Positions 7,768 to 36,060 of a DNA stretch of 37,161 nucleotides are shown here, one piece after another. The stretch is taken from positions 1 to 37,161 of the forward strand of contig JAHHIK010000086.1 in NCBI GenBank assembly GCA_019358935.1, in the 5' to 3' direction. How positions within the stretch are numbered: position 1 is the first letter of the stretch; every line of letters begins with the position of its first letter. Below the pieces are notes generated by a model. That model ran no database searches. It was not told the origin of the DNA and worked only from the letters and a program-made list of their open reading frames with translations. Source of the stretch: Tolypothrix carrinoi HA7290-LM1 (GTDB taxonomy: Bacteria > Cyanobacteriota > Cyanobacteriia > Cyanobacteriales > Nostocaceae). Position numbers and translations under genes: made by a program.

Positions 7768-7812
7768 GAGGCAGTGCGTTGCGTATTTTCCCCCCGTTGT
7801 AGCACCTGCCGT
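7768..7812 (-). repeat. 45-nt ACG...CTC inserted element (copy 1)
   Basis: Minus strand ACGGCAGGTGCTACAACGGGGGGAAAATACGCAACGCACTGCCTC interrupting a GAAAGGG array. Confidence 0.7.
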
Positions 7813-7831
7813 GAAAGGGAAAGAATTATTA

Positions 7832-7981
7832 CCAATGCCCTATGCCCCATGCCCAATGCCCAATGCCCAATGCCCAATGCCCAATGCCCAATGCCCAATG
7901 CCCCATGCCCAATGCCCCATGCCCAATGCCCCATGCCCAATGCCCAATGCCCCATGCCCAATGCCCCACTCCCCACTCCCC
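7832..7981. repeat. STRR array (TGCCCAA/TGCCCCA)n between kdpA and kdpB
   Basis: About 20 heptamer units visible. Confidence 0.95.
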
Positions 7982-7987
7982 AAATAC

Positions 7988-10093
7988 ATGAATCCCGTAG
8001 CAACTACTTCTAAAAATAAACCTCCACGTTCTCTCAAGAGCGATCGCCGTCAATCGCCGAAAAAGTCTAAAGTAAATAATAAAGGACTTTATCTAAGAGC
8101 AGTTAAAGATGCTTTTGTCAAGCTCAATCCCAAATATGCAATCAAAAACCCAGTCATGTTTTTGGTTTGGGTAGGCACAATTATTACTCTTTTAGTCACG
8201 ATTGATCCTTATTTATTTGGACAAGTCCCAGGCGAGAATTTACAACGTTTTAACGGCTTGATTACCGGGATTTTATTCTTTACTGTCTGGTTTGCCAATT
8301 TTGCGGAAGCCGTCGCGGAAGGACGCGGTAAAGCTCAAGCTGATGCTTTGCGCTCAACTAAGTCAGAAACTCTCGCCAGAAAACTCTCCCCTGATGGCTC
8401 AATTACCGAAGTACCTTCCACCAGCCTCAGACAAAGTGATACTGTATATGTAGTTGCAGGTGATATTATTCCCGCCGATGGAGAAGTGATTATGGGTGTC
8501 GCTTCGGTGGATGAATCGGCAATTACTGGCGAATCTGCACCAGTATTGAAAGAATCAGGCTCGGATGTTGCTAGTTCAGTTACTGGCGGTACACGGATCA
8601 TTTCCGATGAATTAATTATCCGAATTACAGCCGACCCAGGTAAAGGCTTTATTGACCGGATGATCGCTTTGGTGGAAGGTGCAGAACGCAGCAAAACACC
8701 GAATGAAATTGCTTTGACGGTGTTATTGGCAGTTCTTACCTTAGTGTTTTTATTTGTTGTGGTGACATTGCCTGCGATCGCCTTTTATGTCAAAAGTTCA
8801 ATTAGCGTACCAATTTTAATTGCTTTGTTGGTGGCATTAATCCCGACAACCATCGGCGGTTTGCTGAGTGCGATCGGTATTGCCGGTATGGATCGAGTTG
8901 CCCAATTTAACGTTATTGCCACTTCCGGACGAGCAGTAGAAGCCTGCGGTGACGTTAACACCTTAGTTCTCGATAAAACAGGTACAATTACTCTTGGCAA
9001 CCGCTTGGCAGAAGAATTTATCCCAATCAACGGTCACTCAGTCGAGGAAATTGCCAGCGTAGCTTTGGCAGCTAGCGTCTTTGATGATACACCAGAGGGA
9101 AAATCAATTGTCCGGCTGGCTGAAAAGTTCGGGGCAAAAGTTGAATTTGACCGCAATCAGTCAGAACCCGTTGACTTTTCCGCCAAAACGCGCATGAGTG
9201 GTACTAACTTACCAGGTGGATATCAAGCGCGGAAGGGAGCAGTAGGAGCAATTCAAGGATTTGTGCGTTCCCGTAACGGACAAGATTCCCCAGAACTTAA
9301 CGCTGCTTACGAACAAGTTTCCCTACAGGGAGGTACACCCTTAGCCGTTTGCCTAGATCGGGAAATTTACGGCATCATCTATCTTAAAGATATCGTCAAA
9401 CCCGGTCTTCGCGAACGTTTTGACCAGTTGCGACGCATGGGTGTGCGTACCATCATGCTGACCGGCGACAACCGGATTACCGCTTCTGTAATTGCTACTG
9501 AAGCTGGAGTTGATGACTTTATTGCCGAAGCAACACCAGAAGATAAAATTTACGTTATTCAAAGCGAACAGGCAAAAGGCAAACTTGTAGCGATGACGGG
9601 AGACGGTACTAACGATGCTCCCGCTCTTGCTCAAGCGAATGTCGGGGTAGCAATGAATACTGGTACTCAGGCAGCCAAAGAAGCGGCAAACATGGTAGAT
9701 TTGGACTCCGATCCCACCAAGCTAATTGATATCGTTTCTATTGGTAAACAATTGCTGATTACTCGTGGAGCGTTGACTACATTTTCCCTCGCCAATGATA
9801 TTGCTAAATATTTTGCGATTATCCCAGTGCTATTTGCTACTGCTAATTTGCAAAGTTTGAATATTATGAAATTGACCAGTACTAATTCTGCAATACTGTC
9901 AGCGTTGATTTACAATGCTTTGATTATTCCGGCTTTGATTCCTTTGGCGTTACGGGGTGTGAAGTTTAGACCGCTAACTGCAAATAAATTGCTACAACGT
10001 AATATCTTAATTTATGGGTTGGGTGGGGTGATTGCACCATTTATTGCGATTAAATTGATTGACATGTTGATTACGGTGGTAGGGTTAGCGTGA
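7988..10093 (+). CDS. kdpB: K+-transporting P-type ATPase subunit B; likely start ATG 7988
   Basis: [25 protein letters not shown] phosphorylation site, [13 protein letters not shown]. The upstream ORF extension is repeat-derived. Confidence 0.97.
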
Positions 10094-10225
10094 GGCTTGA
10101 TTTTTTGATTGTAGAGATGTTGTAGTTAATGTCTTTACAATTAAGTGCAGTAGCAAGAGAACGAACCGCGTTCGCGGAGCGTCTCGAAGAGAAGGGCGCA
10201 AAGGACGCAAAGAAATAAGAAAGTT

Positions 10226-10492
10226 ATGAAAAGAGTTAATTTAGAATATAAGTTTTTAGCAATGGATGCAGTGCAGGCAATTTTGTTTGTTTGGTGGCGA
10301 TGGTATAAACAAAAATTGCCGCTCGTTCTTTTTATCGTTCTGTGTTTGAATTTGTTAGTTGCTCCAGTTGTTTATGCTGCTGATGGCAATTTGGAACGTC
10401 GTTCGGCTTGGGCGATCGGCGTTTTAGGATTTGTAACTGTGGCACTTATAATTTACTTATTTGATGTCATTTTTCGCCCCGAACGCTATTAA
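10226..10492 (+). CDS. kdpF: Small hydrophobic Kdp subunit (KdpG-type with a KdpF-like C-terminus)
   Basis: Two hydrophobic segments; C-terminal LIIYLFDVIFRPERY resembles KdpF; lies between kdpB and kdpC. Confidence 0.75.
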   Translation: MKRVNLEYKFLAMDAVQAILFVWWRWYKQKLPLVLFIVLCLNLLVAPVVYAADGNLERRSAWAIGVLGFVTVALIIYLFDVIFRPERY

Positions 10493-10543
10493 TTGGGCAA
10501 CCGACAAAATTAAAGTAAATATTAGAGGTTTTAAACAAATTTT

Positions 10544-11149
10544 ATGTCTATTGTGAGAGAAGCTATCAGAGCAATTCGCATTACTTTGGTTCTCTGGTTG
10601 CTGACAGCAATTATTTATCCTTTATTTATTCTTTTGATAGCTCAAGTTCCCTTGCTTCAAGAAAAGGCTAATGGCAGTATCATCTATAATTTCAAAGATG
10701 AACCAATTGGTTCGGCTTTGATTGGACAACAGTTCAGAGATGAGCGCTATTTTCATGGTCGTCCCAGTACGGTGAGATACAGCCAAGGAAAACAAGCCAA
10801 ACCAACCGGCATATCTGGCGCCAGCAATCTCGCTCCCAGTAATCCAGAATTGCTCAAACGAATTGTAGAGCAAGCAAATCAACTCAAAGACGAGAATATT
10901 CAACCACTCGCCGATTTAATTTATACATCTGGTTCGGGTTTAGACCCACATATATCAATAAAAGCAGCGCGGGAGCAGTTAGATCGAGTTGCTCGCGCTC
11001 GTAGTGTCCGCGAAGATGAAATAAGTCCTTTACTTGATAAGTATACTGATAAAAGATTTTTAGGGATTTTTGGAGAGCCTGGAGTTAATGTTTTGCGATT
11101 GAATTACGCTCTCGACCTCCAAGAACTTAATCGCAGGCAAAATCAATAA
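10544..11149 (+). CDS. kdpC: K+-transporting ATPase subunit C
   Basis: GSALIGQQF, YFHGRPS, SGASNLAPSN, SGSGLDPHIS, VNVLRLNYALD. Confidence 0.97.
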   Translation: MSIVREAIRAIRITLVLWLLTAIIYPLFILLIAQVPLLQEKANGSIIYNFKDEPIGSALIGQQFRDERYFHGRPSTVRYSQGKQAKPTGISGASNLAPSNPELLKRIVEQANQLKDENIQPLADLIYTSGSGLDPHISIKAAREQLDRVARARSVREDEISPLLDKYTDKRFLGIFGEPGVNVLRLNYALDLQELNRRQNQ

Positions 11150-11156
11150 ATGATAA

Positions 11157-11546
11157 TGGTTAGTGGATAGTGGTTAGTGGATGGTGGATGGGGGATGGGG
11201 GATGGTGGATAGTGGATAGTGGATAGTGGTTAGTGGTTAGTGGTTAGTGGTTAGTGGATAGTGGTTAGTGGATAGTGGATAGTAGATAGTAATTAGGTTA
11301 ATCAACAACCAACAACCAACAACCAACAACCAACAACCAACAACCAACAACCAACAAACAACAACTCACAACCAAAAACCAACAACCAACAACCAACAAA
11401 CAACAACTCACAACCAAAAACCAACAACCAACAACCAACAACCAACAACCAACAACCAACAACTCACAACCAACAACCAACAACCAACAACCAACAACTC
11501 ACAACCAACAACCAACAAACAACCAACCACTCACAACCAACAACCG
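11157..11546. repeat. Bipartite STRR array: (TAGTGGT/GGATAGT)n then (AACCAAC)n
   Basis: Directly visible heptamer arrays between kdpC and kdpD. Confidence 0.95.
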
Positions 11547-11547
11547 T

Positions 11548-12708
11548 ATGAACACTAAACTTTCAAATTCTGGAAGTTATTATCCTATACGTTCGGCGCG
11601 GCGGGGTAAACATAAAATATTTATTGGTATGGCTCCTGGTGTGGGCAAAACTTACCGCATGTTGGAAGAAGGACATGCGCTCAAACATGAGGGAATTGAT
11701 GTTGTTGTTGGGCTTTTGGAAACCCACGGACGTAAGGAAACGGCACAAAAAGCGCAAGGGTTGGAAATCATACCCCGTAAGGAAATTCCTCGCGGTGGAT
11801 TGACTTTGACGGAAATGGATACCGATGCAATTTTAGCGCGATGTCTAGCGACAAGCCGCTACGCGTCTACGCCTCAGCTAGTATTAATCGATGAACTCGC
11901 ACATACCAATGTCCCAGGTCAAGAGCGCGAAAAACGCTATCAAGATGTAGAAATCATTTTGGCAGCAGGCATTGATGTATACTCCACAATGAATATTCAA
12001 CATTTGGAAAGTCTCAATGACCTGGTAGCGCGAATTACTGGGGTGATAGTACGAGAACGAGTTCCCGATCGCATTTTAGATGAAGCAAATCAGATTGTTG
12101 TTATAGATGTAACACCAGAAACTCTGCAAGAACGCTTGCGAGAAGGCAAAATTTATGCACAACCAAAAATCCAACAATCCCTCGATAATTTTTTTCAACG
12201 CCGCAATCTGATAGCTTTGCGGGAATTGGCTTTGCGGGAAGTCGCAGACAACATCGAAGAAGATGCGATCGCCTCCACCCCCGCAGGACAATTCTGTAAT
12301 ATTCACGAGCGGGTTTTGGTGTGCGTATCCACCTATCCCAACTCAGTACAACTATTGCGTCGAGGGGCTAGGCTTGCTAATTATATGAATGCCCCCATTT
12401 TTGCTGTATTTGTCAAAGAAAAAGACCGCTTCCTTACCAAGGAGGAAAGTTTATATATTGAAACTTGTGAGAAACTGTGTAAAGAATTTGAAGGTACGTT
12501 TATTCATTTCAGCAGTAATGATGTGGCTAGTGCGATCGCAGAAGTCGCGAAACAATATCGCATCACCCAGATTGTAATTGGCGAAAGTCAGCGAACGCGC
12601 TGGCAAATACTCTGGAAAGGATCTTTAACACAAACGTTAGTCCGCTTGCTCAAAAACGTTGATTTACATATAATTGCCACTGAGAAAAACAATAGCACTC
12701 AGTTGTAG
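11548..12708 (+). CDS. kdpD: Short KdpD (N-terminal KdpD domain plus USP domain; no TM or histidine kinase domain)
   Basis: [39 protein letters not shown]-like C-terminus; stops at 386 aa. Confidence 0.93.
11843..11869. mobile_element. 27-nt small dispersed repeat inserted into a HIP1 site within kdpD
   Basis: GCGAT[GTCTAGCGACAAGCCGCTACGCGTCTA]CGC; removal restores GCGATCGC and the sequence DAILARSPQLVL. Confidence 0.8.
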
Positions 12709-12785
12709 ATACGAACGAGCAATTACCCAAATCTTTTTGTATCTCCACTTTAATTAAAAATCCAAAATCTAAAATCCAAAATCGA

Positions 12786-14048
12786 ATGACTTATGTAATC
12801 GGTTTAATCAGTGGTACCTCGGTAGACGGTATAGACGCTGCCTTAGTAGATATTTCCGGCACAGATTTGGATCTGAAAATTGAGTTGTTAGCAGGTGAAA
12901 CATATCCTTACCCAGTCGAACTTAGAGAGCGAATTTTAGCAGTTTGTGCTGGAGAGAGCATCTCAATGGCAGAATTGGCAGAATTAGATGATGCGATCGC
13001 GATCGCTTTTGCCCAAGCTGCCCAAAATATCCAAAACGGTCACAAACCAGCTTCTTTAATTGGCTCCCACGGTCAAACAGTTTACCACCGACCACCTGGG
13101 GGAGAGGGGGGGACAAGGGAGACAAGGGAGACAAGGGAGACAAGGGGACAAGGGGAGAATTCTCAATCCAAAATCACGCCACGTGCTTCAAGTCGGCGGA
13201 GCCGCCCAACGCAGTGGCTCCAAAATCTAAAATCCAAAATCGGTTACAGTCTACAACTCGGACGCGGTGCTGTCATTGCTCATCTGACAGGCATTACCAC
13301 TATCAGTAACTTTCGCGCCGCTGATATTGCCGCAGGTGGTCAAGGTGCGCCCCTCGTACCTAGAGTAGATGCCTATTTGCTCAGTCATCCTCAAGAAGGG
13401 CGTTGTATTCAAAATATCGGCGGTATTGGTAATCTTGCTTATATACCACCTCGTCGTGACAACTGGCTCGAAAAAATTCTCGGTTGGGATACAGGTCCAG
13501 GAAACAGCTTATTGGATTTGGCTGTACATCATTTAACTGCTGGTGCGAAAACATACGATGAAAATGGCGACTGGGCAGCCAGTGGCACACCTTGCCATCC
13601 ATTAATAGAACAATGGCTAAATCAAGACTACTTTCATTTACCGCCGCCTAAATCCACCGGTAGAGAGTTATTCGGCGTTGCTTACCTGCATCAGTGTTTA
13701 AAAGACGCAGAAATATATCAACTCAGTTCTGCCGACTTGCTGGCAACTCTTACCGAACTAACCGCAGCTTCAATTGTTCACAATTACCGCACCTTTTTAC
13801 CGCAAATGCCACAGCAAGTATTTTTATGTGGTGGTGGTAGTCGCAATCTTTATTTGAAACATAGGTTGCAGATTTTGTTACAATCAATCCCCGTATTAAC
13901 CACAGATGAAGTCGGGTTGAGTGCCGATTTTAAAGAAGCGATCGCCTTCGCAGTTTTAGCTTATTGGCGAAACTTAGGCATTCCCGGCAACCTACCAACA
14001 GCCACAGGCGCCAGTCAAGAAGTTCTTCTAGGAGAAATTAATAGGTAA
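12786..14048 (+). CDS. anmK: Anhydro-N-acetylmuramic acid kinase with an in-frame repeat-derived insertion
   Basis: [60 protein letters not shown]. Confidence 0.96.
13176..13220 (+). repeat. 45-nt ACG...CTC inserted element (copy 2), in frame inside anmK
   Basis: ACGCCACGTGCTTCAAGTCGGCGGAGCCGCCCAACGCAGTGGCTC within an AATCCAA/AATCTAA array. Confidence 0.8.
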
Positions 14049-14049
14049 T

Positions 14050-14250
14050 GGGTAATGGGGACAAGGGGGACAAGGGGGGCAAGGGGGACAAGGGGGACAA
14101 GGGGGACAAGGGGGACAAGGGGACAAGGAGGACAAGGAGGACAAGGAGGACAAGGAGGACAAGGAGGACAGAGGTAAATTTTGACTTTTAACTCCTAACT
14201 CTTAACTCCTAACTCCTAACTCTTAACTCCCCACTCCCCACTCCCCATCC
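14050..14250. repeat. Bipartite STRR array (GGACAAGGA/G)n then (TAACTCC)n
   Basis: Directly visible. Confidence 0.9.
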
Positions 14251-14302
14251 CTTAAACTGCGGCTATACTGTACTTAATTTGCCAAGGCAAGGATCGTACA
14301 AG

Positions 14303-14749
14303 GTGGCTCATACTTTTTTATTAGAACCAGGACGCTGGACAATGCAAGGAAATTGGCTGGAACGTAACGGAATGCCAATCAGCGTCAAGGGTATGACCTT
14401 GGTAGCTTGGAATCGAGATAACTGGTTCACGATGGCAACAAAGTTGATATTTCCAGCTAGCGATCGCTCTGACATTTCTTTCCTCTACAAAGGGTGTCTT
14501 CATGATGGAGAGCGTCAGTATACTTTTTTACTACAACATAATGTTTTGGGGCAGGTTGAAGGTGAAGGCTGGATTGCTCAAGATACAATTGTGCAGCGTT
14601 ACTGGGTATTAAGCGATCGCCAACGTCGTAGTGGCTTTGAAACTTTACACCGCATAAATAATGATAGCTACTACTTAACCAGTGGCATCCTTGCGGGTCA
14701 TTTTTTAACTAGCACAATGGAAGCCAGCCTAGAGCGTCAGCCTACATAA
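14303..14749 (+). CDS. Hypothetical protein, predicted beta-rich; likely GTG start
   Basis: Open frame of 148 aa with protein-like composition and two HIP1 sites. Confidence 0.75.
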   Translation: MAHTFLLEPGRWTMQGNWLERNGMPISVKGMTLVAWNRDNWFTMATKLIFPASDRSDISFLYKGCLHDGERQYTFLLQHNVLGQVEGEGWIAQDTIVQRYWVLSDRQRRSGFETLHRINNDSYYLTSGILAGHFLTSTMEASLERQPT

Positions 14750-14938
14750 TTGGGCACTGGTTAAGGGTTTACATTTCCATATTCCTTAAGCGCGATCGCA
14801 TTTTAGCAGAGTCTGTTCGTCAGACATTGCTTTGTTGAGCAATTAACAGTATAAACACTGTTAACTTTGTAAAAATTTTAAAGTTAAAAATATAAGTGAT
14901 ATATTCCTCCGACTAGTTTACCCAACCAGGAGCATTGA

Positions 14939-15595
14939 ATACCCGTAGGTCTGCCTGAATTCGTTGAAAATCCCGAAAACCGCTGCCCAGTTATTTTGTT
15001 ACTCGATACTTCTGGCTCTATGTACGGTCAGCCAATCCAAGAGTTAAATTGAGGGCTTGCGGCTTTCAAAGAAGATGTACTGAGAGATTCTCAGGCATCG
15101 TTGAGTGTAGAAATGGCGATCGTCACATTTGGACCTGTGCAGCTAACCCAAGACTTCACAACCATTGACCAGTTTACACTACCCAAGCTCGAAGCTAGTG
15201 GTGATACTCCGATGGGCGAGGCGATTGAGTACGCTTTGGATTTGTTAGAATATCGTAAATTTACTTATAAATAAAATGGCATTCTATACTATCGCCCTTG
15301 GATATTATTGATTACCGATGGAGCGCCAACCGATAGTTGGCAGTATGCAGCACAACGGCTGAAAGAGGCAGAAGCACAGCGCCGAGCCTTGTTTTTTCCC
15401 GTTGCTGTGCAGGGTGCAGATATGAACACCCTCAGACAAATTGCTCCGCCAGAACGTAGCCCTATAATGCTGAATGGCTTGGATTTTCGTTCTTTATTCG
15501 TTTGGCTCTCTACTTCCATGAAACGGGTTTCCAGCGGCAAAGTAGGGCAAGCTGTAGCCCTCCCATCTGTGGGATGGGGTCAAATTACCACCTAG
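14939..15595 (+). pseudogene. vWA-domain TerY-like protein, inactivated
   Basis: AGGAG RBS then ATA in place of a start codon; single frame [23 protein letters not shown] (MIDAS DxSxS), TPMGEA, ITDGAP; in-frame stops TGA 15050-15052 and TAA 15272-15274. Confidence 0.88.
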
Positions 15596-15611
15596 AATTT
15601 AAGGAGATTTT

Positions 15612-15905
15612 GTGGCTTGGAGAGCAGTTGCGCGTTTTGAGATCGGAACCAGTCATGAAAAGCAGCAGATGCTTTGTCAAGATTTTGGGGATTATCGCAT
15701 ATTGAATGATGTGATTGTCGGGGCTGTTGCGGATGGTGCTGGTAGTGCCAAACATTCTGATGTTGGGGCTAAGTTGGCAGTTGAGACGGTAGTTGGATAC
15801 TTGAGCAGAATTGATAAATATATCCACAAGCGGAAACGTTGCTGGGAAAGATTCTCGCAGCCATCTAAAGAACAAGCTAAAAGGCTATTTGCAAAGACGG
15901 GATAG
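15612..15905 (+). pseudogene. PP2C-like phosphatase of a TerY triad, N-terminal fragment only
   Basis: GTSH...CQD and AVADGAGSA motifs; ends after 97 aa without the DG/DD C-terminal motifs. Confidence 0.85.
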
Positions 15906-18073: not shown

Positions 18074-18122
18074 TATTTTTATAAATAATAATAGCAACCA
18101 GATAAAATATAATCGAATTTTA

Positions 18123-18353
18123 ATGATTATCTTAATTGACGCATTATCTCAGCAAGGAACTCAGGTTTTTTATTTAAATGGTAGAGAAATTTCGAGTAAA
18201 GAAACCTTTTTAAGAAAAGCTGCTGAAGCAATGAATTTTCCCGCTTACTTTGGGGTTAACTGGGATGCGTTTGATGAATGTATCACCGATTTAACATGGT
18301 GTCCTGCTGAAAGATATGTCTTATTGTATGACCGTCCAATCTTCAATTGTTAA
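18123..18353 (+). CDS. Barstar-family protein, probably C-terminally truncated
   Basis: FPAYFGVNWDAFDECITDLTW matches the barstar signature; 3' end overlaps the convergent PIN gene. Confidence 0.75.
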   Translation: MIILIDALSQQGTQVFYLNGREISSKETFLRKAAEAMNFPAYFGVNWDAFDECITDLTWCPAERYVLLYDRPIFNC

Positions 18354-18743
18354 ATTCGGAATTTTGCTAAAATCCTTATGGTTGCGTGTAACTACGATAC
18401 CATCAACCGAGAGAGCGATCGCGGCAATTCGTAAATCTCGCGTACCAACACGGATTTTTTGACGAACTAAATCTTGATAACAACTGTAAGCATCCTGGGT
18501 AAAATCTAGCACGTTAATGCTCTTGAAATCGTCCAATGTATCCTGTAACTTTATGTAAGCTGATACTAATGCGTCAGGCGAGGAAGCCCTTCTGATAGTG
18601 TCAAGCCTTCCTCGCAGTTGTTCTTCTGCTGTGATGATTGTTGTAGCAATGTCTTGAGGATTAACCGTATTAATGCGCTGGATTACAACAGGATGCCCTC
18701 TTTGAAGAAGAGATATATGATCCGTATCTAGTATCCACATCAC
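18321..18743 (-). CDS. vapC: PIN-domain (VapC-like) toxin
   Basis: ILDTDHIS, TAEEQLRG, DLRIAAIAL, VTRNHKDFSKIPNL acidic PIN motifs. Confidence 0.9.
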   Translation of the reverse strand: MMWILDTDHISLLQRGHPVVIQRINTVNPQDIATTIITAEEQLRGRLDTIRRASSPDALVSAYIKLQDTLDDFKSINVLDFTQDAYSCYQDLVRQKIRVGTRDLRIAAIALSVDGIVVTRNHKDFSKIPNLTIEDWTVIQ

Positions 18744-19117
18744 TTGACTTCATCCTCGGCATCAAGTTTACGGTAATATTCTTCCATTTCGGCATCTAGT
18801 TCACGGCGATCGGCTTCTATATATGCCAGCATCTCATCAAATTGCGGATCGTCTTTATACTTACCAGCAAATTTCATCCAGGGATGTTCGGCTTTGGGAG
18901 GTTCGATTTTCATAGAGACGATTTCGGCTTTAGCCAAACGCTCAGTCAAACGCTCATATAAACTTGTTAAAGCTTCTTCTTTAGTAGCACCTATGGCTTG
19001 ACAATCTGGCAAACCTATCACTGTCGCAAGAACCTTACCATCTTCTTGATTTTCAATTAGCACATCGTAAGTAAACTCTGAAGGCTTTTTGCTTGGAGTC
19101 AAAAGAGATAAATTCAT
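18740..19117 (-). CDS. HicB-like antitoxin
   Basis: VLIENQEDGKVLATVIGLPDCQAIGATKEEAL HicB-like fold; HPWMKFAG tail; 4-nt overlap with the PIN gene. Confidence 0.75.
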   Translation of the reverse strand: MNLSLLTPSKKPSEFTYDVLIENQEDGKVLATVIGLPDCQAIGATKEEALTSLYERLTERLAKAEIVSMKIEPPKAEHPWMKFAGKYKDDPQFDEMLAYIEADRRELDAEMEEYYRKLDAEDEVK

Positions 19118-19604: not shown

Positions 19605-21167
<1,563 letters not shown>

Positions 21168-23117: not shown

Positions 23118-23136
23118 AAAATTTTGCAACCAACAA

Positions 23137-24873: not shown

Positions 24874-24899
24874 TCTAAGTCCTAAACTGTTTTTAATAA

Positions 24900-25383: not shown

Positions 25384-25806
25384 AAATTTTTGTTACGCTC
25401 ATCCGCAAGAGAATTATAGCTTGCCTGTCTGCCTTACTGCTTCTGCTTTTAGTACTGGGCTTTTGCGGAGCGAGAAATTTAGCGTTAGACACTTCTGCTG
25501 AAGATAGCATTGCTTATCAAATACCAAGGCGAATGGAGAGCTTATTTATATCCTAATGGCTAGCGGAAGCAGGCGAAACCAAAACTATTGCTGTAATGTA
25601 GTAAATACGGATATCAATATCGATAATTTATCAAAATCAAAATTTTTTAGGTATTTTCGCTGACAGAGAGGGAAACCTAGACGGAAAGCCTTATAGCAGT
25701 TGGCTAAAGTAGCAGCAAGTCAAGAGACATCACCTAATTATAACTTGGACAAAAATCTTATTTGAAACAAACAAGCGAACTATAAAAAAGATATAAGGCA
25801 AATGGG

Positions 25807-26127
25807 ATGGATATCTTTACGATAATTTTGGTACCATTATTGCTAGGAATTTTTACCAACAGATTAGATGCTATTCTAATCGCTCCCGCAGTTGAAAAGG
25901 TCTTGAAGCGCATCAAGCAAGATGACAAGCAAGTCAATCATCAACTTGAAAAAGCCTTGAGACTTTGTTTCCTCTCAGCACTCCAAACTATAGCCAGAGA
26001 ATGCCACAAAGAACTGATTGGTTTTTCTCCTGTGCAACGCTACCGAATTAGTGGCAAACCTGGAGAGCAGTTTAGTCTCCATATTCAGCTTGGTGAAGCC
26101 AATATTATACGAAATTTTGTAATTTAA
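25807..26127 (+). pseudogene. Probable deletion chimera: helical N-terminus fused to a DUF1822-like C-terminal tail
   Basis: Tail ISGKPGEQFSLHIQLGEANIIRNFVI resembles DUF1822 C-termini, which commonly precede CHAT genes (recalled). Confidence 0.5.
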
Positions 26128-26147
26128 CTGCCTGCAAGAGGTCAGCA

Positions 26148-28723
26148 ATGGGCAAGTTAGTTGTAATCAATTTAATAGAGGGCAATTTTGAGAAGGGTTT
26201 TTCTGTCTCCTTGCAGATTTGGACAGAAGGCGATCGCCAATGGATTGCTGCTGCCAAGGGCAAACTGCCTCCAGCGGTAGAGCTGCATGAACACTATAAC
26301 AATTGGCAGTCACGCTATCGCAGCCATGTGTCAGGCAGAAATTCTACTCGAATCAGCGTCACGGGAGGTACTGATGCTTCTATCATCACTGACATTAAAA
26401 AAGCCAGCAAACAGTTAAAGTCGAGTCTTAATGACTGGCTCAAAGCTGATTCTAGTTTTAGTCACATCCGAGAGAAATTGTTCCAAAATCTGAAGAATGA
26501 AGATGAGGAGATTCGGGTCATATTTGAAACTGAAAATCTGGAATTACAACGTTTGCCTTGGCATCTTTGGGATGATTTTTTTAAGAGGATGTTTGAAAAG
26601 TATTAGATTTGACAAAGAGACCTAACCCTCCTACCCCCCTTCCCTAAGAGGGAAGGGGGGTTTCAAAGCCTCTCCCCCTGTGGGGGAGAGGTTTGGAGAG
26701 GGGTCTTTTTGTATACTTTGCGACTTTTCAAACATCCTCTAAGCATTACCATCGGGCTGAGGTTGCTTTGTCTCTACCAGTGAAAAAAGGGCAAATAGCG
26801 TCTAACAGCGATCAAGTCAAAGTTTTAGCAGTTTTCGGCAAAGATACTAGAATTAATACCAAAAAAGACTGGCTGATGTTGGAAGAACGATTAGCTCAAG
26901 ATTCCAACGCCTTGCTAATTAATATAAATAAACCTAAATTAGACGATTTATGTGACCAGATTGATAAACATAAACCCCAGATACTCTTCTTTGCTGGTCA
27001 CAGTCGTAGTGAAGATGATGGAGAAAGTGGTTTTATTGACCTTAATGACGATGAAACCATAACGATTGATGATTTAGAACCTGACCTGAGAAAAGCTGTT
27101 AAACGGGGTTTGCAACTGGCTATTTTTAACTCTTGTGATGGGTTGGGAATAGCACGGCAATTAGCACAGTTGCATGTCCCAAATATTATTGTTATGCGAG
27201 AGCCTGTGCCGGATCAAGTAGCACAGATGTTTTTGCAACGTTTTTTAGAAGCATTTGCAGCAGGAAAGCCTTTACATCTCGCAGTGCGGAGAGCAAGAGA
27301 AAGGATAAATCGTTTGGAAAATCAATTTCCTGGTGCTACTTGGCTGCCAATGACTTTTCAAAATCCGGCAGAACCACCGTTAACTTGGCGATCGCTTGGT
27401 GGTGTGGAAATAAAAAGGCAATCCAATCAGTCTGCTTTTCCCAGTGAAGAGTCTAACATGACTAACCAAGGTTCGATAGCTTGGCTGAATACTGAAGTCG
27501 GCAGTTATTCCCCGCCAACACCACTGCCAATAAGAATGCAGAAGGTTACAATTATTTGTAACAAAGGTCATCAAAATTCCTCTGACAATCGTTTTTGCAT
27601 CCACTGTGGTGAGGCTTTAAATCAGCAGTGGATAAAACTTTCAATTACTTGTAGTCAAGGACATGAAAATTCTCGTACTAGCTCTTTTTGTAGTTACTGT
27701 GGTGAAGATTTGAAAGGTGGAACTAATATCATTTTACCTACTACCCAGCCGCAATTACCAGCAATTCAACCTGAAACTGAGTTGCCACCAAAAACTCCGA
27801 TTAATTCGGAGGTTTCTAGTAAGCGAAGAGCTACAGTAATAGGAAACCTGTTAAATGAACGCTACAGAATTCTAAAAATCTTGAGTAAAGGTGCATTTAG
27901 TGAGACTTTTATCGCAGAAGACATAAATTTACCAAGTAATCCTCAATGTGTTGTGAAACAACTTAAGCTCATGACAAATGATCCACAAATTTGGAAAGAG
28001 GCAAGAAGATTATTTTTTAAAGAGGCAGAAGTTTTGGAAAAGTTAGGAAAACACGACCAAATTCCGGTAATTCTAGCTTACTTTGAGGAAAATTATGAAT
28101 TCTATTTAGTTCAAGAATATATTGAAGGTCACACTTTAACTGAAGAAATTTATCCTGGAAAGCGATTAGCTGAAACTCAAGTTACTAGCATTTTGCACGA
28201 CATTCTCAAAATTTTGGAGTTTGTCCATCAGCAAAATATTATCCATCGCGATGTTAAACCCTCAAATTTAATTAGACGCAAGCAAGACCAAAAGTTAGTT
28301 TTGATTGACTTTGGGGCTGTAAAGCAAATTCAAAACTCAACTATTGAAGATACTATTATTATTGGCACTCCAGCCTATATGCCTAGTGAGCAAATGGAAG
28401 GTAAACCATATTTTAACAGCGATATATATGCTGTGGGTATTATGGCTATCGAAGCACTCACTGGAATATCACCTCGCGAACTACGGCAAAATTCTAATGC
28501 AGGTGAAATATTTTGGCGGGACTATGCACAAGTTAGTGATGAACTAGCAGCTATTTTAGATAAGATGGTGTGCTATGACTTCAAGCAAAGATATCAATCA
28601 GCTACGGAAGTTTTACAAGCTTTGAAGGATATGCAAAGAATTGTGATTTCACCGACTGTCATTACTCCTAATCCAACAATTATATCTGGGCTTAAATCAT
28701 TTTTTAATGGTTTAAAATTATAA
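26148..28723 (+). pseudogene. CHAT domain + double zinc ribbon + Ser/Thr kinase, interrupted by a MITE (805 aa once repaired)
   Basis: Removing 26585-26742 joins LPWHLWDDFFK to HYHRAEVALS; FFAGHS and FNSCDG CHAT motifs; two CxxGH..FCxxCG units; HRDVKPSN, DFGAVK. Confidence 0.9.
26585..26739. mobile_element. 155-bp MITE with perfect 17-bp TIRs and a TAA target duplication
   Basis: GAGGATGTTTGAAAAGT ... ACTTTTCAAACATCCTC, TAA at 26582-26584 and 26740-26742; internal GC hairpins. Confidence 0.92.
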
Positions 28724-28897
28724 ATAGAACCGCTGTGCCAGTAGTTAATAGTATACGCTCGCTCTCCTACTTCACACGCAGATAATCTTGCATTAAAAAA
28801 TTTTAAGCCTTAGCGCGACAGCATATGAATTCTTAATTTTTTCAAATACTTTCTCTTGAGAGAATATCATTAAAAGTAAAAAAAGGAGATTATTTAT

Positions 28898-29122
28898 ATG
28901 CTTTACAAAGCAAATATTATTATCGAAAAAGATGAGTATGGATATTATGCTTCTTGTCCAGAACTTCCTGGATGTCAATCTCAAGGAGATTCTTTAGAAG
29001 AGGTAAGAGAAAATATCAAAGAAGCAGTTGAACTTTATCTAGAAACTTTATCAGAGTCAGAAAAACAGGCACTTTTAAACAAGGAAATACTAACTATGAC
29101 TTTAGAGGTACAAGTTGCCTAA
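28898..29122 (+). CDS. hicB: HicB family antitoxin (short form)
   Basis: YYASCPELPGCQSQGDSLEEVRENIKEAVELYLE. Confidence 0.9.
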   Translation: MLYKANIIIEKDEYGYYASCPELPGCQSQGDSLEEVRENIKEAVELYLETLSESEKQALLNKEILTMTLEVQVA

Positions 29123-29351
29123 ACAACCGCGTCTCAATGCTAAGGAAGCGGAAAAACTCTTATTAGATGCTGGCTTTATCCAGATTAGAAGCAAAGGCAG
29201 TCATAGAGTTTATCGTTTAGAGGATGTTAGGGTTGTGATTCCTTTTCATTCAGGCAAAGTGTTACATCCAAAGATAGTTCAACAGGTTATGCAAGCTATC
29301 AAACCTACTGACAATGATATTGTTGAAGACACTTATGATGATAGTCAATAA
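29115..29351 (+). CDS. hicA: HicA family mRNA interferase toxin
   Basis: GFIQIRSKGSHRVY...VVIPFH; overlaps the hicB stop. Confidence 0.9.
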   Translation: MPKQPRLNAKEAEKLLLDAGFIQIRSKGSHRVYRLEDVRVVIPFHSGKVLHPKIVQQVMQAIKPTDNDIVEDTYDDSQ

Positions 29352-29367
29352 GCAAGTAAGTGCATAA

Positions 29368-32091
29368 TTATGTATTATTTATACTTGGATAACGTTGTCC
29401 TAAAAACTCTTCAGCCTTAGCGCGATCGCTTACAACTCCATCCAATGTAGCAGCAAGCAAATCATCCAATATTTGCCGAAACTGCGGTCCCGGTTTATAC
29501 CCCAATCTTTTTAAATCATTGCCATTCAAAATCGGCTGAACGTTAGCCCATACTGTCAAATATTGCCAAATTTTCCCCCTTACTACTCGCTTACTTCGCA
29601 CCGCAATTAAAATTAACATTGGCAAATCATACTTTCGCAGCAACTGCACTACTTGACTGGGACGCTGGAAAGTTAATAATAATGTCATTACCTCAGCTTC
29701 AGCAAATGTTAAGTTTTCTAACCTTTTAATACTATCTTCTTGTAATTGCAGATTTTTTGCTACCTTACCGCGATATTCTGGTGTTAGATGAGCGATGATA
29801 GCTTCTAAACGCATTTGCCAATGAATCAAACTTTGCTGAGTGTCAAATCGTCGCAAACAGCGTTCTAATAAACGTAATTGCCGCAATAATTCTTCATCTA
29901 ATTTTAGTGTAGGATGAATGCATTGCAACGCCCCTAAATTATCGAGCAACTGTAAAGCATCTTTCCAATAAGGTGCTTCTAAGATATGCTTTAATTCGGC
30001 TTTGAGTCGAGTTTGTAAAGCCGGAGTTTTGCTATTTTGTTGTGCAGTGCGATCGTAAATGCCACTGTTAATCGCATAACGAATATACGCTTCTGTTTGC
30101 GGTTCAATTTGAAATCCAAAGCGTACAGCAAAGCGTACACCGCGATAAATGCGTGTCGGATCTTCGATAAAACTGTTGACGTGTAAAACGCGAATTTGCT
30201 TGGCTTGTATATCCAGTAAACCGCCGAAAAAATCTAGTAATTCACCAGCGCGGGGAGAAGTTAATCGTAGCGCGATCGCATTAATCGTAAAATCTCGTCG
30301 ATACAAATCTTGACGAATCGAACTCGCTTCTACTTCCGGATTCGCCGCCGGATAAGGATAAAATTCTGTTCTAGCAGTAGCGATATCCACCCATAACGAA
30401 TTCAATTCTGGGTCATTATGCCACAGCAAAGCCGCAGTTTGAAAAGCGCCATGAATTTCTAAGCGTGCAGTCGAATAAACTTGCTGTAGTGATGAAGCTA
30501 ATTCTACACCAGCACCGACATCTGCTGATTTGTGAAAGCCATCAACTACCATGTCAATGTCTTTAATCATTAAAGCACCTGCGGATTCTTCAGCTAACAG
30601 CAAATCCCGCACTGCACCCCCAACTAAATAAAGATGCCAACCACGTTTTTCTGCCTCTTTTGATGCTATACTAAGCAGCTGCCAAAGTTGTGGCGCAAGT
30701 TTATTTTGCAATTGTTCCCCATAGGAAAACAAAATCTTGTCTCCTTGTCTCCTTGTCTCCTTGTCTCCTTGTCTCCTTGTCTCCTTGTCTCCTTGATGTA
30801 ATTCCCGCAAAACATCAGTGCGGGTGACAATTCCCAATAATTGCTTATCTTGCAACACTGGTAAGCGTCCGATATCATATGTCACCATCAGCGCTTCGAT
30901 TTCGGGGAGTGTCGTATCTGGTGTAATTGTCTTGAGATTAGTTGTCATGTAGCCTTTAACTGGTGCATGACTAAAGCCGTGATGCAAAGCAATATCCAAA
31001 TCTCGACGCGAAATTATACCTACTAACTGTGCCTCGGCATCGACGACAGATAAACCAGAATGCCCGTAGCGCAACAAAATACGCTGTGCTTCCTCAATTG
31101 TAGTTTCTGGACGGATGGTGCGGACTGGAGAGGACATTAAATCTCTCGCTGTGGGAGGATGAGGAATATTAGCTTTTATGCTGTCAAGAAGTTGGTTTAA
31201 TATGACTTGTGGATCTACTCCGCGCAGGTTGACCGATGTAGCTTGAGAATGTCCGCCACCGCCTAAAGGTTCAAATAATTCGTGAAGATTAACATTCTTG
31301 ATTTGCGATCGCCCAATCACCGTTAACCGCGATTCGTTTTCCGCTGGATATTCATTTGCCAGCAGTAAAGCATCAATTTCGGTTAACGTCATTAGCTGCG
31401 AGGCAAGACTTGATAATCCAGGCACAAATTTATCTGTTTTCAGAATCACCCAGGCGATCGTATATCCCCGTATGCATACAGATTGCAATTTGTCTATAGC
31501 TTGAGTTAACAATTGCTGCAATTGTAGGGATAAACCCGGATCTAGATACTCAGCAATTACCGACAAGCTAGCGCCTTGTTGCATCAACCAAGCCAAAGCT
31601 AAAGCATCTCGCGCAGTGCTAGAGTCAAAGGTGAGAGAGCCAGTATCAACATGAATACCCAAAGCCATGACAGTGGCTTGGGCAGGAGTGAGGGAAATTT
31701 CTTGCTGTTGTAATAGTTCCACCATTAAAGTGGTGGTGGCTCCGACAGAAGAAATATGCGCGACCGTGGCGGGAATATCTGATTCTTGCGCGATGTGATG
31801 GTCATATACTATGATTTCTTTAAGGTGGGGTAAATCTAACCATTCAGCAGCTTTACCCAGGCGATCGCGTTGTTGCGTATCCACCACACTTAAAGAGCGA
31901 ATTTTTTCTGGATTGACCGAACGCCGTTCAATCAACGGATATTCATCGCGATGCAACGCCAAAAAATCCCGCACAGGTGGATGAGAACCGCCAGTCAGCA
32001 CAATCAAGCTTCCTGGTAGCAAGCGCGTTAGCCCTACCGCCGCTCCTAACGCATCAAAATCAGCTGTAGTGTGGCAAAGAATTAAATCCAT
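29368..32091 (-). CDS. DHH-DHHA1-CBS-nucleotidyltransferase (A-adding tRNA nucleotidyltransferase / poly(A) polymerase family)
   Basis: DFDALGA, YDHH, GGGGHS, paired CBS domains, [28 protein letters not shown]. Confidence 0.93.
30736..30795. repeat. (CTTGTCTC)x7 in-frame array in the CBS-NTase linker
   Basis: Encodes [20 protein letters not shown]. Confidence 0.9.
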
Positions 32092-32479
32092 AGTTAAGAG
32101 TCAATAGTCAACAGTCAAGAGTCAAGAGTCAAGGATCAATTTTTAGACTAATGACTAAATGCTTACAATTGCTACTAGCTTACAACTGGGAAAGATTTTA
32201 AGTGTTGCCCTTTAACTAATCGCCTTCTTTTTCCTCCTGGGCGCAGCGCTATTGAGTTGTTAGTATGAAGTGGTTTCGCATTCATTTGATGGTAGTATTT
32301 CAATGGTCGATGACCCACCCACACGGCAGTCAACAAAGGTAACAGTAGCGGTACGACGCTTACCACGGTAACTATCGTGAGAAAAGGGGAATGGGTTTAC
32401 CCCCTGATTCTTGACAATCATGGTGAACCTCGTTAAAAAACAATATCTGCCGAGGGTGTGCAGGGCGGCTGCCTGTGGA

Positions 32480-32627
32480 ACGGCACATGCTTTAACGGGG
32501 GGAACCCCCCTTCGGGTTCGCTCCTTGCCGGCACGAGGGAAAACGCCACGTGCTTCAAGCCGGGGAACCCGTCCAACGCAGTGGCTCCCCTCCCTTTCTC
32601 GCTGGTCTCACCGCAACGCAGTGCCTC
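32480..32627 (+). repeat. Three-level nested small elements (45-nt > 58-nt > 45-nt)
   Basis: Outer 32480-32508 + 32612-32627; middle 32509-32542 + 32588-32611; inner 32543-32587. Confidence 0.75.
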
Positions 32628-32844
32628 CGCTGTGTAAGACCATCATCGTCTTGAGTGACGAATTCCTAGAAATAGGGATGCCTAACGTGGCAACGGCGGT
32701 TTATAAGTGAAACTCGCTCATACGAATAAGACCGTCCCTGATTTCAATGAGTTTTGGGAGAACCAAAATCGAGTGCGCGATCGCTTTGGGGTACTTCCAC
32801 GATATTCTATCTTTAGTATTTAGCTGTAAAAGTGAGAAGGAAAA

Positions 32845-33033
32845 ATGACCATTATATTTCAAGCTGCATTAGTCGCGCTGGTTGCGTTGTCGTTTGTCAT
32901 GGTTGTTGGTGTTCCGGTAGCTTATGCCACTCCGCAAAATTGGAATGAGTCGAAAAAGCTACTTTGGATCGGTTCTGGAGTCTGGTTTGCCTTAGTGTTT
33001 TTAGTTGGTCTATTAAACTTTTTTGTGGTATAG
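32845..33033 (+). CDS. psbZ: Photosystem II protein Z
   Basis: 62 aa, two TM helices, [13 protein letters not shown] motif. Confidence 0.96.
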
Positions 33034-33079
33034 ACGACTCCTAGTCTGCGCTGGCAAATAGTATAAATATTTGCTTCAT

Positions 33080-33370
33080 CAGAGGGAGAGGGGGACAAGG
33101 GGACAAGGAGACAAGGAGGACAAGGGGAGGACACTTCTGTGCGGGGGTGGAGGAGTAAGGAACGTGTCCGTGGACAAGGAGGACAAGGAGGACAAGGAGG
33201 ACAAGGGGAGGACACTTCTGTGCGGGGGTGGAGGAGTAAGGAACGTGTCCGTGGACAAGGAGAAATTTCTTCCCCTGCTTCCCCCTCCCCCTTGTCTCCC
33301 TCCTCCCCCTTGTCCTCCCCCTCTCCTTGTCCCCCCCTCTCAAGAACTCTCCCCCTTCCCCCCATCTCCC
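33080..33370. repeat. GGACAAGG array containing two identical 45-nt elements (33127-33171, 33208-33252), followed by a C-rich complementary array
   Basis: 81-bp tandem duplication; minus strand of the unit reads ACGGACAC...GTGTCCTC. Confidence 0.85.
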
Positions 33371-33448
33371 AAACTTTCCTGCTGCTCTACTTTTAAATAA
33401 GAAATGTATATTGGCTGATATGTATAGTTGATTGATTAAGAGGCAGTT

Positions 33449-34024
33449 ATGGCAGTTTTCGAGGGAACTTTTACTCAGACAGAACCTTTGCGGTTTGCAG
33501 TGGTTATTGGTCGATTCAATGACCTCGTTACCAGTAAGCTGCTAGAAGGCTGTCAAGATTGCTTGAAACGCCACGGCGTAGATGTCAATCCTCAAGGAAC
33601 TCAGGTGGATTATGTTTGGGTTCCCGGCAGTTTTGAAGTGCCAGTAGTGGCTCGTCAGCTGGCGCTTTCTCAAAGATATGATGCAATCATTTGTCTGGGT
33701 GCTGTCATCCGAGGGCAAACGCCTCATTTTGATTTCGTATCCTCTGAAGTAGCTAAAGGTATTGCCGCTGCTGCCTTTCAAACTGGCGTTCCGGTAGTTT
33801 TTGGCGTTTTGACAACGGACACGATGCAACAAGCTTTAGAAAGGGCAGGTATTAAGAGTAATTTGGGTTGGGAATACGCCATGAGTGCCTTGGAAATGGC
33901 TAGCCTCATGCGGAATTTGCGCTCTAACCTGGCAGAGCCATATCGCAATTCTCAATCTTTGCCTCCCTCTTTTAAAAGTGCCAGCTTAGGTGAATTTGCC
34001 GCCGAGTCACAAGAACACGTCTAA
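33449..34024 (+). CDS. ribH: 6,7-dimethyl-8-ribityllumazine synthase
   Basis: [42 protein letters not shown]. Confidence 0.97.
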
Positions 34025-34084
34025 GGGTGTCAAGAGTCAAGAGTCAAGAATCTTTTGATTTTTGACTTTTGACTAATTAAGGTG

Positions 34085-34116
34085 TTGACAAACTCTGATT
34101 AATGTGAAATTATAAT
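34085..34116 (+). promoter_or_regulatory. Possible sigma70 promoter for tRNA-Gly
   Basis: TTGACA (34085) and TATAAT (34111), but the 20-nt spacer is atypically long. Confidence 0.4.
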
Positions 34117-34131
34117 ATTTATATGCAAGTT

Positions 34132-34203
34132 GCGGGTATAGCTCAGTGGTAGAGCGTCACCTTGCCAAGGTGAATGTCGCGCGTTCGAATCGCGTTACCC
34201 GCT
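34132..34203 (+). tRNA. trnG: tRNA-Gly (GCC), CCA not encoded
   Basis: GCGGGTA/TACCCGC acceptor stem, TCACC-TTGCCAA-GGTGA anticodon arm, GTTCGAATC T-arm. Confidence 0.98.
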
Positions 34204-34476
34204 TTTGAAGAAAGTAGATTCATCGCATTACGATCTAAAACCTTTATTGTAGAGACGTTCCGGACCGAATGTCTCTACTTTTGCTATTTACCTGAAACAA
34301 AGATTGGCTCAATTAAAGTGATTTTGGTGTAGTTTTGCTTTTATATAGCTGAACTATTGCACCTTTGCGGCAATGCCCTTATTGAAATATGTGGCATCCA
34401 GACATAAGATATGGGCATCAAGTGCAAGATGTCAGCTTTGGCAAAAGTCTCGAAAAAAAAGTTAAACGAGCAATTC

Positions 34477-34758
34477 TCAACAAGTATGAGGTAAGAAGGT
34501 TTGGAAGCTTTCAACAGCAGGCTTTTCGGCTTCAGCAACCAAGGTGTTTATTGCGAGTTGCATGAGTTTTAAGCGCTGATAGTCGCTTAAATCTTCGCAG
34601 TAATCCACCGCTTCAACTGGCAGCTCGTAAGTTAACTCTCCGTCGTCCGCTAGATAGCGAATGCTCTCTTCTGGCATCATCAAGGCTCGCGAGAGCAGTT
34701 CGATTAGGGAGAGCAAATCTTGATCGTCAAGGGTGTCTATTAGTTTTTCGTTATTCAT
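34477..34758 (-). CDS. Hypothetical acidic protein
   Basis: 93-aa ORF with GAGG upstream of ATG; internal pseudo-repeat LDDQDLLSLI / LSDYQRLKLM. Confidence 0.65.
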   Translation of the reverse strand: MNNEKLIDTLDDQDLLSLIELLSRALMMPEESIRYLADDGELTYELPVEAVDYCEDLSDYQRLKLMQLAINTLVAEAEKPAVESFQTFLPHTC

Positions 34759-35110
34759 TCCTCAAGGTGTTGGTTGGGGTTGTTCGGGCGCAAATCTCTT
34801 ACTTCAACTGCTGGTTTGAGCGCGTATTGCAAGCCTTGCGTTGCTTGTACCTGTCTTCCTAATTTTTCGGTAGCAAGAATCCGTTCTTTGCGGGTTGTTA
34901 GAGAATTTAAGCTCCTGGGAAAATTCTAGAGCGTCTCGATTTTATCGAGAACGCTTACCTCTGTTATGTTGATGGTCATCAACGCGATTTGGAAACTCGC
35001 TTGCTTGAAAGCAAGCAACAGAAAGAAGCCTTTAAAGCAGCAGTTCAGGAACTAAAGCAAGAGATATACGATTTAGTTTCCGATAGCGAGCAATCCAAAC
35101 AAAACGAATA

Positions 35111-35145
35111 GGCCGTCCCCGCCTTTTGCGGTAGGACGGCTTTTT
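35111..35145 (+). terminator. Rho-independent terminator
   Basis: GGCCGTCC-CCGC/GCGG-GGACGGCT hairpin followed by a T tract. Confidence 0.65.
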
Positions 35146-35230
35146 GATGGGTGCGGTCACTGTGAGGAGTGTGCGATCGCGCTCAATGACTAACGCCCAA
35201 TGACTAACGCCCATTTAACCAACCAAAATT

Positions 35231-35482
35231 ATGGAACCAAGCCAGGAGATAGCATTTTTTGAGGCTGCCAAAGTCAGCAAACTAGCCCAAGCAACTGAAG
35301 AAGCGGCACTTGAGCTAAGTGGATTCATCGACTTTGTTCAGCATCACAACCCGGAAGTCGATAAAGTCACCGCTACTCTGACTGCTGCATTTTGCTTGCA
35401 TTATCTGCGTACTGCTTTTCTAGAGGAACCAGAGATGATGCAGCAATTGAGGGTGATCGCACTTCGATTTTCTCAAGGATAA
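35231..35482 (+). CDS. Hypothetical helical protein
   Basis: 83-aa ATG ORF followed by an AAAAGCC...GGCTTTT hairpin. Confidence 0.65.
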   Translation: MEPSQEIAFFEAAKVSKLAQATEEAALELSGFIDFVQHHNPEVDKVTATLTAAFCLHYLRTAFLEEPEMMQQLRVIALRFSQG

Positions 35483-35611
35483 AAAATTAAAAAGCCCCCC
35501 AGAACTTTAGCAAAGACGGGCGGCTTTTATTAAGTTGATTGAACTACAGGTACTTACGTATCTGCTTAATCGGTTCACAAACCACTTTCAATCACGCTCT
35601 TAATCGCTCTT

Positions 35612-36060
35612 TTGACACTCTCCGCCCTAAAAGTGCGGAGATTCTTGCTTCATCCGTCCTCTCTAGATACCTAAATGCAGGCATTTAGACATCCCCGTTT
35701 GGATACGTCCACTCATAGTACACGGACTGCCCGACCGCGTTTGAAAAGGTTTATTCAATTTCTTGCTTTACTCCCACGTTTGTGAGCCACTGCGGTGAAG
35801 CAGTCCCCTCAGGAGCGGTTCCCGTCGATGGGGGACTGCTGAACCCGAAGGGTGGACGGGTTCCCCGGCATAAAGCAAGTGGCGTACAAGATTCAGGATT
35901 TTTACTACCAGGGTTCTGGATCAGGAGTTGTCCACTAGACCTACTTCGTTTTTTATGTGCGCTTTACCGCTATATTTCCATAGTCGCACAATACTGCGTT
36001 TTTGTCCCTAGTTTTTTAAAGTCGTCCTAGAAGGACGAGGCTTTAAACCCATTTTTTTCG
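35612..36060 (-). mobile_element. Non-autonomous IS200/IS605-family element (449 bp, no tnpA/tnpB)
   Basis: Minus strand: TTAC|CGAAAAAAATGGGTTTAAAGCCTCGTCCTTCTAGGACG left-end hairpin; right end GAAGCAAGAATCTCCGCACTTTTAGGGCGGAGAGTGTCAA ending in TCAA. Confidence 0.8.

Follow-up and report, generated by a model that had tools for sequence, protein, structure and literature searches.

The window analyzed here, a stretch of 37,161 nucleotides (nt) that makes up contig C86 of the 7.96-Mb genome of Tolypothrix carrinoi HA7290-LM1, contains seven copies of a 45-nt element that carries no gene (type A). All seven intervals given in the original prediction contain the element: each copy starts with ACG, ends with CTC and measures 45 nt once nested inserts have been removed by script, and after this removal all five outer pairs of the stem are present in every copy. 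The inner hairpin, which had been ascribed to several copies, is intact in four of them (5-6 of 6 pairs); it is weak in the copy at 7768 (2/6) and absent from those at 33127 and 33208 (0/6).

The first copy (7768..7812, minus strand), with a decayed inner hairpin, lies within a CCCCTTT heptamer array in the kdpA-kdpB spacer. It was placed upstream of kdpB because the match to the KdpB profile begins at residue 109 of the long open reading frame (ORF). The second (13176..13220, plus strand) sits in frame within a CCAAAAT array in a variable loop of anmK (anhydro-N-acetylmuramic acid kinase; 12786..14048, plus strand), a gene that matches NF007143 above cut-off and whose frame is intact. The third (32480..32627, plus strand) consists of 32480-32507 plus 32611-32627, split by a nested 58-nt element of a sister type, here called type B (32508..32610, plus strand), which is split in turn by the fourth copy (32543..32587, plus strand). 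Two identical 45-nt copies (33127..33171 and 33208..33252, both minus strand), variants whose outer stem is 6 bp long and in which the inner hairpin is missing, are found 81 bp apart in the same array of 9-mers. The last copy (35784..35885, minus strand) is split after its own base 33 by a 57-nt type B element (35796..35852, minus strand); the nested inserts are thus of type B in both cases. Its host is a repeated non-coding sequence (35612..36064, no strand assigned) with a paralog 97-100% identical, and we take it to resemble a gene-less derivative of the IS200/IS605 type. Since the copies at 33127 and 33208 are identical and only 81 bp apart, and genome G272 has the array without the element, they probably arose by array duplication of a single insertion, and the seven copies in the window record six events.

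Iterative excision yielded ~368 type A copies in the whole genome, plus at least 66 of type B; these counts are pattern-based and miss decayed copies. The length is modal at 45 nt (283 of the ~368 copies, and 285 in a count of 366), with 42/366 copies of 46 nt and 15/366 of 47 nt in a range of 41-48 nt, and 66 of 366 copies have a length that is not a multiple of three. There are 260 ACG…CTC 45-mers with five Watson-Crick outer pairs, compared with 4-16 at each of 20 other lengths between 36 and 59 nt; the only other lengths raised in the same count were 46 (51), 47 (21) and 48 (23). A chance origin of the 45-mer excess is excluded. Among 359 cores the ends were AC..TC in 289, GC..TT in 25 and AC..TT in 13, which makes GCG…CTT the second end type, and copies with other ends from a filtered GTDB sample had G..T in 107 of 111 cases. 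Five further genomes gave 20 ACG…CTT, 2 ACG…CTA, 2 GCG…CTC and 8 single ATG starts. The claim of fixed length and termini did not hold, as both the 46/47-nt forms and the GCG…CTT ends have been propagated.

The core pattern, which covers both types, is present in 143 of 161 family genomes, and a single genome may hold as many as 247 matches. Of 121 genomes from the order, 18 contain the type A pattern, and multiple copies per genome are confined to this family and a second one (4/5); at the level of the class the pattern occurred in 15 of 251 genomes. Named matches are mostly from Nostocales and include a plasmid of N. punctiforme PCC 73102. A viral contig of 66 kb (IMGVR_UViG_3300036045_000523) also has four copies, in the retrieved loci L133, L138, L140 and L141; one is in frame in a portal-like gene, and the variants are those typical of the second carrier family.

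Read on the ACG strand from the outside in, the element consists of 2 free bases, a 5-bp stem (3-7/39-43), a one-base bulge (position 8), a 3-bp stem (9-11/36-38), an internal loop with CAA on each side, a 6-bp stem and a 3-base loop, and it has 2 free bases at the 3′ end. The top pairs by corrected mutual information in 126 unique copies were 4:42, 10:37, 7:39, 9:38, 12:35, 19:29 and 17:31. An alignment of 46 distinct copies, four from the window and the rest from other genomes, upheld the predicted covariation of the stems: paired cells amounted to 94.9%, versus 71.1 +/- 1.2% after shuffling, and the covariation score was 0.533 versus 0.141 in shuffled and at most 0.095 in slid controls; relatedness among the copies inflates these controls. 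Two-sided changes were seen at 10 of 14 pairs, a count reached by 135 of 500 shuffles and hence not unusual. The pairs G3-C43, C5-G41 and A6-T40 are invariant in this alignment. A scan of GTDB for other bases at 6/40 returned 120 hits with a single family member among them, against ~7000 stretches of the normal form. The element was described as structure-encoded; this is true of the covarying stems but not of the ends and the three outer pairs, which are fixed in sequence, so that it is not purely structure-encoded. Single copies fold only slightly better than their shuffles (z from -0.7 to -2.0 in 8 folds), and the structural evidence is therefore the covariation and not the stability.

Outer and inner modules are combined in many ways, yet in all but one of 126 copies (125/126) the 3′ arm of the outer stem can be told from its 5′ arm. 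Such combinations with coupled outer arms suggest that recombination among copies swaps the inner modules and produces mosaics. Loop inversions and scrambled junctions also occur among the copies.

Type B shares the core hairpin. Its leader is a small CCCTTCGGG hairpin and its end is TCA; most elements measure 55-58 nt, and they insert before CC (+1 C in 68/68, +2 C in 64/68). Type B could have arisen when type A entered a free hairpin of 11-12 nt, but free matches to such a hairpin numbered only 0-2 per form. At one locus (L458, G479:C39) a type B element stands at the start of an IS605-type tnpA with a broken frame.

The original prediction had overlooked a target motif. It is one-sided and follows the cut: among 165 contexts, C was found at +1 in 151 and at +3 in 153, and W (A or T) at +4 in 135 and at +5 in 143, with T at -1 in just one. 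The motif is CYCWW, and 126 copies from other genomes agree with it. Sites in IS3 (AAGAAG or AAAAAG) and some sites in repetitive extragenic palindromes (REPs) deviate. Elements of the GCG…CTT type have a preference for other sites (C at +1 in 23/59 vs 70/101, p 2e-4), with +3 C (54) and +4 W (58) kept. The CAA loops of the element provide target sites of their own, which would explain self-nesting. Two candidate guides were rejected. The link between base -1, as a readout, and pair 4:42 was strong in this genome (mutual information 0.33), weak elsewhere and absent in the second family; in other genomes G at -1 accompanied 13 G4 and 17 C4, and other bases 15 and 81. An IS608-like guide with zero linker differs from the published geometry, and no variants exist for testing it.

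Insertion is precise and leaves no target duplication, as had been claimed, and exact empty sites were found for several copies. In G272 the host of copy 32480 cleanly lacks 148 bases; contig C34 carries a paralog of the 35784 site that is exactly empty; and five type B hosts elsewhere in the genome lack copy 32543. The 32480 host belongs to a non-coding stretch of ~570 bp (window ~32215-32790) that is common to G272 and contains the 148-nt nest; comparison with four further genomes from the genus shows that this stretch interrupts the upstream gene, and it looks like a gene-less mobile element. An IS3 in two genomes of another order (G231 and G191) has the element at two sites, filled or empty in different IS3 copies. 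These elements (L001-L005) are located at the 5′ foot of a hairpin after an A-run, likely a frameshift signal, one per strand, and the variants in G231 and G191 differ. Flank contexts were found joined exactly elsewhere in the genome in 82 of 165 cases, with a 1-nt duplication in 13 and a 2-nt one in 1; many of these contexts are repeats, so this figure speaks for precision more than for independence. None of the 15 anmK relatives recovered out of 23 loci carries copy 13176; in two of them the same CCAAAAT array is present as a single unit with nothing inserted, and another holds a type B element. The anmK loop (window 13090-13240) has a different repeat insertion in nearly every relative, always in frame, be it a 9-mer or 7-mer array, a REP-like palindrome or, once, the type B element. 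No empty ortholog site was found for copy 7768, for which 1 of 14 loci could be aligned and bore a different array, and 0 of 14 ortholog loci aligned for copy 35784.

The 165 contexts comprise 60 arrays, 54 nested insertions and 51 others, and the majority of copies are intergenic. Long ORFs contain 35 of 300 copies whose length is a multiple of three and 2 of 66 others (p = 0.04), in keeping with the proposal that such a length aids persistence in genes. No head-to-tail dimers were found (0), though a target-like sequence is formed at every right junction. Unlike miniature inverted-repeat transposable elements with terminal inverted repeats, the element leaves its two outermost bases at each end unpaired and does not duplicate its target. 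The heptamer arrays of the genome also contain other precise inserts, of 22, 24, 28 and 33-34 nt, some of which may be classic small dispersed repeats (SDRs) or REPs.

Which strand might be acted upon was judged from the folds. Of 215 unique copies, 207 fold more stably as the GAG…CGT strand under DNA parameters, and 209 do so under RNA parameters. Irregular columns read G-T or G-A on this strand: 16:32 is G-T in 189 copies and Watson-Crick in 15, 12:35 is G-A in 148 and Watson-Crick in 53, and 18:30 is G-A in 91 and Watson-Crick in 109. As few independent events lie behind these columns, the support they give is moderate. They point to GAG…CGT as the strand that is recognized. Were the ends joined on it, the junction would read C(GN|RA)G, a GNRA loop, for all end types.

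The exact ends without duplication, the short 5′ target on one preferred strand and the bulge in the hairpin are compatible with the single-strand cut-and-rejoin chemistry of HUH-type enzymes, and so is the length of the element, which is too short to form a circle of double-stranded DNA. For these enzymes, precise, duplication-free and strand-specific transposition via a single-stranded circle with a bulged hairpin is the established pattern in the accessible parts of the sources (PMC3201880, PMC8266576). Some Y1 match was also obtained in all five carrier genomes that were checked, against two for RVT_1 and one for Transposase_20. The reading that we put first, with a probability of roughly 0.4, is that a gene-less hairpin of 45 bases is inserted without target duplication before a CYCWW-like motif and is moved in trans, as single-stranded DNA (ssDNA), by an HUH-type enzyme. 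Its starting points are the ends, the covariation, the target motif and the empty sites as observed; the active strand, the circle and the enzyme class are postulated. The ends lie exactly two bases beyond the 5-bp stem on either side, and the stems covary, whereas bulge and internal loop are held, together with the ends and three of the outer pairs. The GAG…CGT strand would be recognized, on which the target motif reads WWGRG and lies 5′ of the cut, in the polarity of IS200/IS605. This strand would be cut at both ends and closed as a dumbbell circle with C(GN|RA)G as a new loop, and the circle would then be reopened within this loop and joined into a nicked target. Swapping of inner hairpins by recombination would account for the mosaics of outer and inner modules and for the sister type B. 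A more novel reading is that the dumbbell circle is opened in mid-loop and inserted by an inherited enzyme of heterocyst formers and one related family, outside the known transposase groups, which would amount to a minimal scar-free insertion chemistry in which one hairpin serves for recognition and the inner module can be exchanged. We regard this reading as tentative and distinctly less probable than the one put first.

A number of results weigh against HUH-mediated movement. The genome contains seven Y1 genes and one RAYT, and none of the eight is flanked by the element. Possible mobilisers were tracked by single queries over 52 chosen, draft-quality genomes (12 high-copy, 16 zero-copy, 5 from the second family and 19 outgroups), a design in which a missing match does not prove absence. 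RAYT matched in 21 genomes, one subclass-1.2 Y1 in 13 and the other in 27, the last in 11/12 high-copy genomes, 6/16 zero-copy ones and 9/19 outgroups. In the second carrier family RAYT was found in 0/5 and the two Y1 genes in 0/5 and 1/5, and all three also occur in non-carriers. Within the second family the Y1 genes belong to unrelated subtypes, and in one carrier just a fragment is present. Neither a cognate enzyme nor a parent element came to light. No base of the element strictly tracks a base of the target, and no target guide was identified. The coupling of the ends is explained equally well by an A-C / G-T terminal wobble pair as by a GNRA loop, and the GNRA fit rests on transitions, which are the commonest mutations. 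Four sets of contigs contained no circle or excision joint and no 45-nt skip, although contigs by themselves are uninformative on this point. Strand bias between half-genomes was not seen in two single-contig genomes (54/89, p 0.42; 26/44, p 0.92), a lagging-strand test in which the origins were not located and in which rearrangement can erase the signal. Finally, the element has one hairpin and not two as in IS200/IS605, and its cuts are 2 nt from the stem; in IS608, according to the part of the source available, cuts are made 19 and 10 nt from the hairpins with a 5′ guide per end (PMC3201880).

The flanks of Y1 genes in this genome and in five other carriers had no likeness to the element ends, and scans for orphan halves and leaders gave no element ends around a gene among the matches listed. 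The RAYT is flanked by its own inverted GTAG REPs (G000:C1:32407-32859, L190), and REP-like sites are not enriched near copies of the element (6/236 vs 31/1079). An 8-base word is shared by the RAYT's GTAG REP arm and the commonest type A arm, probably by chance. The Y2_Tnp profile had no match in the genome, though its control matched nowhere either. A replichore bias suggested by a run of 21 plus-strand copies among the matches listed was gone in the full list.

The original prediction had named reverse transcriptases, IS110 and RAYT as mobilisers whose presence should correlate with the element, and none of them tracks with it. This is among the reasons to consider a chromosomal host enzyme, specific to the clade and of another chemistry: a topoisomerase-like enzyme, a structure-specific nuclease together with a ligase, or a recombinase that, like integron integrases, uses folded ssDNA as its substrate. 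Such an enzyme would both excise and insert the hairpin. No mobile-element enzyme follows the element, multi-copy carriage is limited to two families among those searched, as an inherited host function predicts, and the cuts are symmetric, 2 nt from the stem. Against this stand the lack of any candidate gene in our searches and the junctions, which share no core such as site-specific recombinases need. We consider this explanation unlikely, if the strongest of the alternatives.

Somewhat less probable is that no dedicated enzyme exists and that the copies owe their spread to recombination by the host, to gene conversion and to template switches from one repeat to another, for which the hairpin ends would serve as switch points. 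The many module combinations with coupled outer arms (125/126), the loop inversions and scrambled junctions, the one pair in the window that reflects array duplication, and the 114 of 165 contexts that are arrays or family members all speak for this. Exact insertion into unrelated hosts without flanking homology (IS3, the hosts of 32480 and 35784, and the 51 other contexts) is not readily explained in this way, and a common short target motif together with invariant ends points to an enzyme.

Slightly more doubtful again is that the element exists as a small RNA, rod-shaped or circular, which a reverse transcriptase of the group II intron, diversity-generating retroelement or retron type turns into DNA. 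The G-U and G-A pairs and the GNRA loop are RNA-like, and there is a group II intron fragment in the window, a match to the RF00029 3′ domain (52.5 bits, minus strand) at 37023-37101, at the end of the contig. However, RVT_1 was found in 2 of the five carriers and not in the other three, one of which has 15 copies; orientation relative to transcription is unbiased (65 vs 66); and both ends are exact, with neither duplication nor tail. No observation favours an RNA over an ssDNA intermediate. Highly improbable is transfer by an IS110 bridge recombinase in trans, or with the internal loop itself as a guide: IS110 insertion does leave no duplication, but Transposase_20 was found in one carrier and not in the other four, the loop bases do not covary with the target, a core common to the junctions is lacking, and a double-stranded circle of just 45 bp is implausible on steric grounds.

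Elsewhere in the window, a VapC-like PIN gene (18321-19117) is overlapped upstream by a 125-aa ORF of no family. The two likely form a toxin-antitoxin pair between kinase genes.

With ends mapped, a likely active strand, a target motif, end variants, a predicted junction and pairs of filled and empty alleles, movement of the element can be tested directly. How non-coding elements shorter than 50 bases move has been a question since the SDRs were described, and the 45-nt family makes it approachable. If the proposed movement is true, an enzyme that inserts a short hairpin of variable interior without a scar would offer a new chemistry for genome editing. The family also keeps supplying the proteins of cyanobacteria with in-frame insertions of 15 residues.

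None of the copies matched an Rfam covariance model at gathering level, and a literature search, which did not include most subscription papers or the original SDR paper, found no description of a 45-nt family. Side-loop insertions are described in a paper on trnL P6b (PMC4476775), the accessible part of which does not name such a family. The element resembles REP/REPIN-RAYT systems, as far as these are treated in the parts of the sources available, in forming hundreds of short bulged palindromes that are mostly intergenic and possibly moved by a domesticated HUH enzyme (PMC8266576, PMC3733652, PMC3116915). It differs from them in having no GTAG or CGTC tag, in occurring as single units and not doublets, and in showing no proximity to REPs. 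With IS200/IS605, and IS608 in particular, it shares the absence of target duplication, a short one-sided target that precedes the cut (5′ side) when the strand with the better fold is read, and a bulged hairpin in which sequence is largely free and structure is held (PMC3201880 and PMC6006769, in the parts available). Apart from the single hairpin and the close cuts, no guide tetranucleotide or parent element was found for it, nor a lagging-strand bias in the two genomes covered; the 45-nt element is not an IS200/IS605 member.

The closest likeness is to the small dispersed repeats SDR1-8 of Nostoc, which Elhai et al. in 2008 reportedly described as 21-27 nt long, with compensatory changes in a shared structure. 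They are said to be dispersed in multiple copies in Nostocaceae, to occur in heptamer arrays and to nest in themselves. The 45-nt element comes from the same clade, associates with heptamer arrays and mini-elements, nests in itself, has a covarying structure and inserts precisely. The SDR-like behaviour foreseen in the original prediction is thus borne out by its presence in 143/161 family genomes, by the 60 array and 54 nested contexts among 165 and by the stems. These SDRs are cited, in the parts available, by PMC4390886, PMC3116915 and PMC3733652. At 45 nt, and 55-58 nt for the sister type, the present elements differ from the SDRs in length, the 45-nt element being about twice the size reported for these, and one SDR may be part of the 45-nt element.

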